DNA of 64,000 nt from Escherichia coli. GTDB taxonomy: Bacteria; Pseudomonadota; Gammaproteobacteria; Enterobacterales; Enterobacteriaceae. The notes under the pieces were generated by a model. That model was not told the origin of the DNA, did not search any database, and was given only the letters and a program-made list of their open reading frames with translations. Position numbers and translations under genes: made by a program. Below, one piece after another: positions 32,888-34,079 of the stretch; the stretch's first letter is position 1, and each line of letters begins with the position of its first letter. The stretch lies in assembly GCF_003018235.1 (NCBI RefSeq), contig NZ_CP027437.1. One strand, 5' to 3'.

Positions 32888-32921
32888 AGGAGAGATACCC
32901 CTGCCGTTTTTTATTTATTCT
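32888..32921. terminator. intrinsic terminator after gltX (overlaps yfeD stop)
   Basis: AAACGGCAGGAGAGATACCCCTGCCGTTTTTT. Confidence 0.6.
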
Positions 32922-33307
32922 GATTCATCTATGTCGAGACGAGCAAGGAAATTACGAATTCCTTCGCGTGACAAAAATTGCGCAACTTTTTCCTGCTCAC
33001 TGTGAGTCATGTTGTCTATTGCGCTGATGATTTGCCGATAAGCAGGAGTGCGAATCCCCGGTGCGTATTCGGCAAGGGGTTCTTCGGCTTCCAGAAGCAT
33101 CGGCGTGTTATGGAAGGCTGGCGTGTTCTGAATAAACTCGCAAACTTGCGTATCGACCAGAATAAGTCTGGCACGACCGCCTTTCACGCCAGGAAATTTT
33201 TCCGTTTTCCAGCCTTTTTCTCTGATCCAACGGTTAACAGTTTGTTTAGCCACACCGAGGCATTCAGCCAGTTCTTCGGTGGTCATTTTATTGCGTAATC
33301 TTTTCAT
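32915..33307 (-). CDS. yfeD: small HTH DNA-binding protein YfeD
   Basis: 130-aa ORF; paralog of the adjacent yfeC. Confidence 0.8.
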   Translation of the reverse strand: MKRLRNKMTTEELAECLGVAKQTVNRWIREKGWKTEKFPGVKGGRARLILVDTQVCEFIQNTPAFHNTPMLLEAEEPLAEYAPGIRTPAYRQIISAIDNMTHSEQEKVAQFLSREGIRNFLARLDIDESE

Positions 33308-33308
33308 A

Positions 33309-33653
33309 TTATTTGCTATCGCGAATCCCTAAGCGTTGTAATAATCCGATAATCCCTTCCCGCAGAAGCAAGGATGTAAACTGTTTTTGTTCAACTGGCG
33401 TCATCTCTTTCGCCAGTGTCACCAGCAACACTTCAAGCGGCGCATCACCAGACAGGGCAGGCGCTTCTCCCTGACCTTCTGGACGTTCAGCATTGCGAAT
33501 ATATTCACGAACCTGTTCATTGACGTGAACCAGTCGGGCTTTGCCACCCTGGACGCCTGGTTTTGGTGACGTTGTCCAGCCTTCCTTGCGTACCCATTTA
33601 TTAATGGTCTGGCGGCTATAGCCGGTCAGTCTGGCAAGTTCATCTGGCGTCAT
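33309..33653 (-). CDS. yfeC: small HTH DNA-binding protein YfeC
   Basis: ORF track 33309..33668; second ATG at 33653 gives 114 aa starting MTPDELARLTGYSRQTINKW; start at 33668 (119 aa) is possible. Confidence 0.75.
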   Translation of the reverse strand: MTPDELARLTGYSRQTINKWVRKEGWTTSPKPGVQGGKARLVHVNEQVREYIRNAERPEGQGEAPALSGDAPLEVLLVTLAKEMTPVEQKQFTSLLLREGIIGLLQRLGIRDSK

Positions 33654-33828
33654 CCTCTCCTTGAACATAACAATTCCCTGAATGTATGTGGGTCTATTAG
33701 TAGTTCATTTTATAACACCACTTTACAGGAAACCGTGACATGAATAACTACTGAATGCGAGCGGTTTTCCAAAATTGTTCATTTGCCTGATTTTTCAGCG
33801 ATTGAAACTACACGTTGCAATTTGCCGT

Positions 33829-33856
33829 TGACACATTCGGGCGGAATTCATATGAT
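33829..33856 (+). promoter_or_regulatory. sigma-70 promoter of alaX-alaW
   Basis: TTGACA - 16 bp - TATGAT then GC-rich discriminator, about 32 nt before the tRNA. Confidence 0.5.
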
Positions 33857-33888
33857 GCCGCCCGTCAACTCGACAAGCTTTACGTGAC

Positions 33889-33964
33889 GGGGCTATAGCT
33901 CAGCTGGGAGAGCGCTTGCATGGCATGCAAGAGGTCAGCGGTTCGATCCCGCTTAGCTCCACCA
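33889..33964 (+). tRNA. alaX: tRNA-Ala (anticodon GGC)
   Basis: GGGGCTATAGCTCAGCTGGGAGAGCGCTTGCATGGCATGCAAGAGGTCAGCGGTTCGATCCCGCTTAGCTCCACCA. Confidence 0.95.
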
Positions 33965-34003
33965 AATTTTGCACCCAGCAAATTTGGTACGTAAACGCAT
34001 CGT

Positions 34004-34079
34004 GGGGCTATAGCTCAGCTGGGAGAGCGCTTGCATGGCATGCAAGAGGTCAGCGGTTCGATCCCGCTTAGCTCCACCA
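34004..34079 (+). tRNA. alaW: tRNA-Ala (anticodon GGC)
   Basis: Identical 76-nt copy. Confidence 0.95.

Follow-up and report, generated by a model that had tools for sequence, protein, structure and literature searches.

The two small genes that lie beside a pair of tRNA-Ala genes in this E. coli genome are yfeC and yfeD, a core operon of paralogous small transcription factors that arose by an ancient tandem duplication and in which both copies have been kept under selection, a reading to which we assign a probability of roughly 0.9. Region 32915–34079 of the window (by which we mean the whole 64,000-nucleotide stretch that was analyzed) comprises two adjoining open reading frames on the minus strand and two tRNA genes on the plus strand. 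The first gene of the bicistronic operon, yfeC (b2398; 33309–33668, minus strand, stop codon included), encodes 119 amino acids and the second, yfeD (b2399; 32915–33307, minus strand, stop codon included), encodes 130, with a single nucleotide between the stop codon of yfeC and the start codon of yfeD. A preliminary description of this DNA had noted both frames, quoting peptides from them, and two identical adjacent tRNA-Ala(GGC) genes; both frames are present at the lengths given and include those very peptides, and both tRNA genes were found by ARAGORN and Rfam, the nearer of them 220 nt from yfeC. Many complete E. coli genomes match the segment at 99.9% identity and carry the same annotation, which in the RefSeq records of near-identical genomes reads gltX, yfeD, yfeC, two tRNA-Ala genes and pdeA. 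The region is a catalogued core-genome operon of E. coli, already annotated and partly characterized, and nothing in the evidence contradicts the identification of its two genes. The RefSeq record of MG1655 describes YfeC as a "DNA-binding transcriptional dual regulator" and gives it 114 amino acids from a start at MTPDEL, against 119 amino acids in the NCBI PGAP pipeline. The upstream ATG is present in 79 loci of other species, and within the first five codons (window positions 33654–33668) residues K3-E4-R5 are kept in these loci through synonymous codons (GAG/GAA; AGG/CGG/CGA/AGA/CGT), so that the 119-residue start is better supported than the 114-residue start.

That the adjacent reading frames resemble each other had been proposed from the letters, with a lack of significant similarity on formal alignment named as the finding that would overturn it. 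A single BLASTP comparison of YfeC with YfeD gave 46 identities in 129 positions (36%), 54% positives and an E value of 5e-27, over an alignment that runs from the N-terminal helix-turn-helix (HTH) through to the C-terminus with both parts similar. Both proteins also match Pfam family PF07037 ("Transcription regulator YfeC-like," formerly DUF1323; gathering cut-off, 22.9 bits) over all 122 profile positions (1–122 of 122), YfeD at 206.1 bits (E = 2e-61) and YfeC at 173 bits (E = 4e-51). A chance likeness of two unrelated HTH reading frames can be dismissed outright against a full-length match at E = 5e-27 that includes the non-HTH C-terminal part and against the shared Pfam family. The YfeC-like family is very small: when 1.84 billion representative proteins were searched with its profile, 198 matched at E ≤ 0.001. 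Of the 150 matches listed, about 16 are full length, all those that were traced come from Enterobacteriaceae or Chimaeribacter, and gltX adjoins every member whose genomic context was examined. The family profile also matches proteins of about 400–1300 amino acids with 5–13 tandem YfeC-like HTH segments (P0181, P0182, P0184, P0185, P0195 and P0208). In P0181 the repeated unit is about 60 residues long and has the form S.YEIAE.FGVS..TI..WLK..GI. These long tandem-HTH proteins are unrelated to the yfeCD locus.

Of 5426 complete E. coli genomes, 5249 (97%) carry the locus in full, and its arrangement extends well beyond the species. Relatives were scanned with one genome per species (285 relatives), and synteny was read from the best 80 of the 285 loci, which represent about 30 genera of Enterobacteriaceae, including Escherichia, Citrobacter, Salmonella, Leclercia, Kosakonia, Enterobacter, Lelliottia, Klebsiella, Kluyvera, Atlantibacter, Yokenella, Trabulsiella, Phytobacter and others. 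Among these best 80 loci, the order tRNA-Ala gene(s), yfeC, yfeD, gltX was found in all 80, usually with the tRNA-Val cluster next after gltX. The stop-to-start spacing between yfeC and yfeD in the same 80 loci was usually 1 nt (range, −20 to +19 nt), and translational coupling of the two genes is therefore conserved. When the products of 81 first genes and 81 second genes were placed in a neighbor-joining tree, the YfeC (first-gene) orthologs formed one monophyletic clade (81 of 81) without intruders. In pairwise comparisons, orthologs of YfeC were on average 74% identical and those of YfeD 54%, compared to 32–48% between the paralogs within one genome. Because identity within a genome is lower than identity between orthologs and the YfeC clade is clean, the duplication must be older than the split of the genera. 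The local duplication put forward in the preliminary description is therefore real, but the tree, the identities and the synteny make it an ancient event and not a recent one. The difference between 74% and 54% identity further indicates that YfeD has evolved about twice as fast as YfeC. Both genes are under purifying selection (dN/dS of 0.03–0.15 for each where dS is not saturated).

Copy number varies at the edges of this distribution. In Chimaeribacter (Yersiniaceae), a single YfeC-like gene occupies the same site, convergent with gltX, and nupC, mntH, two tRNA-Ala genes and tRNA-Val lie nearby. One metagenomic contig likewise carries a single YfeC-like copy adjoining gltX, and Cedecea has a YfeC-like pair whose members are 53% identical. 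In metagenomic Chimaeribacter contigs (L083–L085, positions 4053–4841), the YfeC-like gene and the tRNA-Ala pair are not immediate neighbors, as a gene of the formate/nitrite transporter family intervenes. Enterobacter sp. BIGb0383 (L050, positions 5001–6144) has three tandem genes, namely, yfeC, yfeD and a second yfeD-like copy, with coding overlaps of 4 nt, which implies further duplication in at least one lineage.

We propose that the locus began as a single ancestral YfeC-like gene convergent with gltX, which underwent tandem duplication before the Enterobacteriaceae split into genera. Purifying selection has since kept both copies as a translationally coupled pair, and each product consists of a winged HTH of the MerR/excisionase/Mu type, a linker that is hypervariable and a C-terminal two-helix hairpin that is conserved. 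After duplication, YfeC has remained nearly frozen, with YfeD changing at its roughly doubled rate. Such asymmetric rates fit divergence of DNA targets rather than redundancy, and we infer that the two proteins have diverged in function.

An AlphaFold2 monomer model of YfeC, built from a 47-sequence family alignment, had a mean pLDDT of 80.6. In the model, residues 1–60 form a beta-alpha-alpha-beta-beta-alpha winged HTH, segment 62–71 is of low confidence, and helices span residues 78–88 and 91–112. YfeC is thus predicted to consist of a winged HTH (1–60), a linker (61–77) that is probably disordered, and a helical hairpin (78–112). YfeD, the faster-evolving paralog, has a YfeC-like architecture with a longer linker. 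Conservation follows the same division: in YfeC the mean fraction of the majority residue per column falls from 0.92 in the N-terminal domain to 0.39 in the linker and rises again to 0.82 in the C-terminal hairpin, and in YfeD the corresponding figures are 0.75, 0.41 and 0.62. Twenty-four positions are conserved in both proteins. Six others are fixed within each paralog and differ between them (R5/K, K24/R, S34/E, Q40/K, K43/R and L82/I), and most of the positions that distinguish the paralogs fall in the recognition helix or the wing. Within the hairpin, both share the invariant residues E93, R103, G105, L110, R112, L113 and I115. The hairpin would be the module for oligomerization or dimerization.

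The N-terminal fold of the family matches winged helices of the excisionase and MerR types, and its wing carries a Mu-like motif, GW-x-T-x3-PGV-x-GG-[KR]-A. Through the wing (GW...GVKGGKA), the family profile reached the I-alpha domain of the phage Mu transposase MuA (E = 1.2e-4) and the Mu repressor (E = 0.019). Single-sequence searches of solved structures gave marginal matches only; the Mu domain was reached only with the family profile. Assignment to a named class fell short in each case. Against Pfam PF02316 (HTH_Tnp_Mu_1; cut-off, 23.3 bits), YfeC scored 14.6 bits (E = 0.041) and YfeD was not listed. The excisionase model TIGR01764 (cut-off, 28.8 bits) gave 27.5 and 18.7 bits, and no integrase lies nearby. 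A MerR-type regulator would show an HMM score above threshold followed by a long coiled-coil dimerization helix, a combination that was not found. Since the Mu-type, MerR and excisionase models all score below threshold, we file the proteins under PF07037 only and call the N-terminal domain Mu-like or MerR-like. The earlier wording "phage-repressor-like HTH" accordingly has some basis in the Mu profile matches and the winged-helix fold, but the family has no relative in phage records (see below).

The same resemblance bears on whether yfeCD was left behind by a phage, integrative element or genomic island inserted at tRNA-Ala, with the HTH genes as its repressor or excisionase genes, an origin that had been raised in hedged form on the strength of the adjacent tRNA genes. 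An N-terminal domain like the winged helices of the Mu repressor, Mu transposase and excisionases is what such a remnant might encode, the better of the two TIGR01764 scores lies only slightly below the cut-off, and there are weak PHROG matches to phage DNA-binding proteins, down to E = 1e-7. The location of the genes is wrong for this explanation, however. Integrases that target tRNA genes act at the tRNA 3′ end, whereas yfeCD is on the 5′ side of the tRNAs and divergent from them. The 25-nt 3′ end of tRNA-Ala occurs only in the two tRNA genes themselves across the 64-kb window with up to 3 mismatches allowed. A search for flanking direct repeats between 30500 and 36800 returned only tRNA-tRNA similarities and short, chance-like two-copy matches, and no integrase was found among the open reading frames of the window or in the RefSeq annotation of near-identical genomes, as the preliminary description had itself observed of integrase and att-like repeats. 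The G+C content of yfeCD (0.47–0.48) is like that of neighboring genes, and the profile has no island-like shift.

Searches for mobile relatives pointed the same way. Searching 50,697 phage records by tblastn with YfeC and YfeD gave no matches, the PHROG matches were to generic HTH families only, and PADLOC reported only weak HTH-level similarity to mad1. Thirteen records labeled as plasmids did match; several of these are of megabase scale, and each record that was checked has both genes, like chromosomal DNA. These records are mislabeled or misassembled chromosomal DNA. An element integrated at a tRNA gene would be recognized by a position 3′ of the tRNA with a bounding attL/attR repeat, and also by an integrase, atypical composition and variable presence; neither set of features was found here. 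With near-universal presence in E. coli (97%), a fixed order across genera in all of the best 80 of 285 loci, and neither tRNA 3′-end repeat, integrase, composition anomaly nor phage relative, descent from an integrated element is very improbable. The adjacency to tRNA-Ala reflects a long-standing, conserved gene order beside a divergent stable-RNA operon and is no trace of integration.

That stable-RNA operon consists of alaW (33889–33964, plus strand; Rfam RF00005, 63 bits), the tRNA nearer yfeC, and alaX (34004–34079, plus strand), the outer tRNA, both named as in the annotation of K-12 MG1655. The two are identical 76-nt genes whose sequences differ only past the CCA end, and they are transcribed divergently from yfeCD across the gap between yfeC and alaW. 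A sigma-70 promoter-like site for the operon lies at 33828–33856 on the plus strand (TTGACA, a 17-nt spacer and TATGAT; 11 of 12 consensus positions), with both hexamers invariant across 14 genera, and the operon ends at an intrinsic-terminator-like hairpin with a T run (34087–34120, plus strand). On the other side of the gap, a putative extended −10 element, TGTTATAAA, was read from the minus strand at 33709–33717. This TG-n-TATAA motif upstream of yfeC is invariant in the 14-genera alignment (columns 179–188) and would be the extended −10 promoter of yfeCD; a good −35 hexamer was not found in the yfeCD promoter region. A G+C-rich hairpin between the convergent gltX and yfeD (32881–32909), an inverted repeat with T runs on both strands, is probably a bidirectional terminator for these two genes.

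Several further observations concern the surroundings of the operon. In most genera of the 14-genera alignment, a near-perfect palindrome, TGCGAG-N4-CTCGCA, lies between the divergent yfeC and alaW promoters (columns 125–142). Its position in E. coli corresponds to about 33757–33774 of the window, and its left arm has decayed in Escherichia, Citrobacter and Salmonella. The palindrome could be a candidate operator or a site belonging to the tRNA promoter. Rfam, at gathering and E-value thresholds, found only tRNAs in or near the locus. RefSeq annotates, in a near-identical genome, an "RtT sRNA" that corresponds to about 30637–30762, downstream of tRNA-Lys (lysV); no RtT match was obtained with Rfam 15 within 30400–34400, even at E ≤ 1. 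Beyond the tRNA genes, pdeA (yfeA) had no tblastn match, with nupC directly beside tRNA-Ala, in several Citrobacter, Phytobacter, Superficieibacter and related loci (L010, L011, L015, L016, L019, L025, L041, L045, L062 and L066; positions about 3200–4600), and it was fragmented in four others (L012, L023, L047 and L053). What varies at this locus is thus pdeA, which lies 3′ of the tRNAs, rather than yfeCD.

Published ChIP-exo experiments treat YfeC and YfeD as transcription factors, with YfeC mainly a repressor. Gao et al. (2021) tagged both proteins with C-terminal 8xmyc, performed ChIP-exo for both and RNA-seq of a yfeC deletion (PMC8464067). YfeC had 50 ChIP-exo sites with an inverted-repeat motif, and the deletion changed the expression of 205 genes; of 20 direct targets, 16 were repressed (PMC8464067). 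The YfeC list includes the ribosomal protein genes rpmH, rpmB, rpsU and rplU, and many of the ChIP-exo peaks have a low signal-to-noise ratio (PMC8464067). Transcription of yfeD rose by a log2 of 4.3 (about 20-fold) in the yfeC deletion, which was viable (PMC8464067). In an E. coli K1 strain, a yfeC mutant colonized the small intestine of neonatal rats poorly (PMC5847654), and in enterohemorrhagic E. coli (EHEC) a yfeC mutant left transcription of the LEE (locus of enterocyte effacement) virulence genes unaffected (PMC11508082).

One ChIP-exo site, at 2516052–2516085 in old MG1655 coordinates, was assigned to yfeC itself (PMC8464067). We regard autorepression of yfeC as unproven, because this peak appears to lie off the yfeC promoter and because polarity of the deletion construct, without any autorepression, could account for the higher level of yfeD transcript in the mutant. 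Converted with an offset between the two MG1655 versions that we take to be about +1976 to +1978, the peak would presumably fall at about 34057–34092 of the window, that is, on the 3′ end of alaX and the terminator, some 400 bp from the start of yfeC. tRNA genes can yield spurious ChIP signal, and the peak is possibly an artefact of a highly transcribed tRNA gene.

A different role for the operon was suggested in 2007, when RASTA-Bacteria predicted yfeC-yfeD to be a toxin-antitoxin module (PMC2374986), a prediction that was later repeated (PMC5847654). A small, translationally coupled two-gene operon in which one member carries an HTH, as in many antitoxins, does have the outline of a type II module. 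Such modules pair two unrelated proteins, however, whereas YfeC and YfeD are paralogs that belong to one DNA-binding family and share its architecture, and neither is therefore toxin-like. Christensen-Dalsgaard et al. obtained no evidence of a functional toxin and antitoxin from yfeCD (PMC2814082), and deletion of yfeC is viable despite the approximately 20-fold increase in yfeD transcript (PMC8464067). Typical toxin-antitoxin loci also differ from this one, which is a single-copy core locus inherited vertically. Taken together, these points make a toxin-antitoxin function extremely improbable.

If yfeC and yfeD are instead a pair of transcription factors, they might act only jointly, as an obligate heterodimer on shared operators. 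Co-occurrence of the genes in all of the best 80 of 285 loci, their translational coupling, and the conserved C-terminal helical hairpin with invariant residues common to both proteins are what this would lead one to expect. The ChIP-exo lists argue otherwise, since the 50 YfeC sites and the separate YfeD list overlap at essentially one site, the rplU/ispB intergenic region (PMC8464067); near-disjoint lists speak against an obligate heterodimer, with the proviso that the C-terminal 8xmyc tags could disturb a C-terminal interface. The unequal rates at which the two genes evolve and the single copy in Chimaeribacter are likewise hard to reconcile with strict joint action. Modeling of a YfeC-G25-YfeD fusion with AlphaFold2, using 36 paired orthologs, folded both halves and gave no confident joint arrangement (pTM 0.32), and Foldseek searches with the fused model returned weak matches only. 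At pTM 0.32, in an output that contains no inter-domain error, the oligomeric state of YfeC and YfeD can only be inferred. Obligate heterodimerization is thus unlikely, and we retain the reading of two paralogous factors whose targets would have diverged.

This analysis removes a possible false lead, namely, that a cryptic mobile element or a toxin-antitoxin locus sits at alaWX. It adds four points to what is known of the operon: the family is tiny; all of its members with an examined locus adjoin gltX; the duplication predates the radiation of the Enterobacteriaceae, with Chimaeribacter remaining single-copy; and the two copies have diverged asymmetrically. Its significance beyond housekeeping is small, as the feature is known and ordinary. 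We can nonetheless speculate that the YfeC-like family derives from the DNA-binding module of a Mu-type repressor or transposase, acquired on a single occasion next to gltX by some ancestor within the Enterobacterales and then duplicated, and that its two products now interact (YfeD might, for instance, modulate or antagonize YfeC via the shared C-terminal hairpin) to tune genes of the translation apparatus such as rpmH, rpmB, rpsU and rplU. As a combined proposal this is decidedly unlikely; were it true, the fixed place of the operon between gltX and two tRNA operons would gain a functional meaning.

Compared with E. coli K-12, YfeC (b2398) and YfeD (b2399) are the same genes, with no difference in kind. 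Compared with the Mu repressor c and the I-alpha domain of MuA (PDB 1qpm/1g4d and 1tns), YfeC and YfeD lack a transposase region and the C-terminal region of the Mu repressor; moreover, yfeCD is chromosomal and core, and the YfeC-like family is missing from the 50,697 phage records searched by tblastn. The closest systems also include MerR-family regulators and small MerR-like or excisionase-type proteins, such as Pukovnik Xis, BldC, RacA and pSK1 Par.
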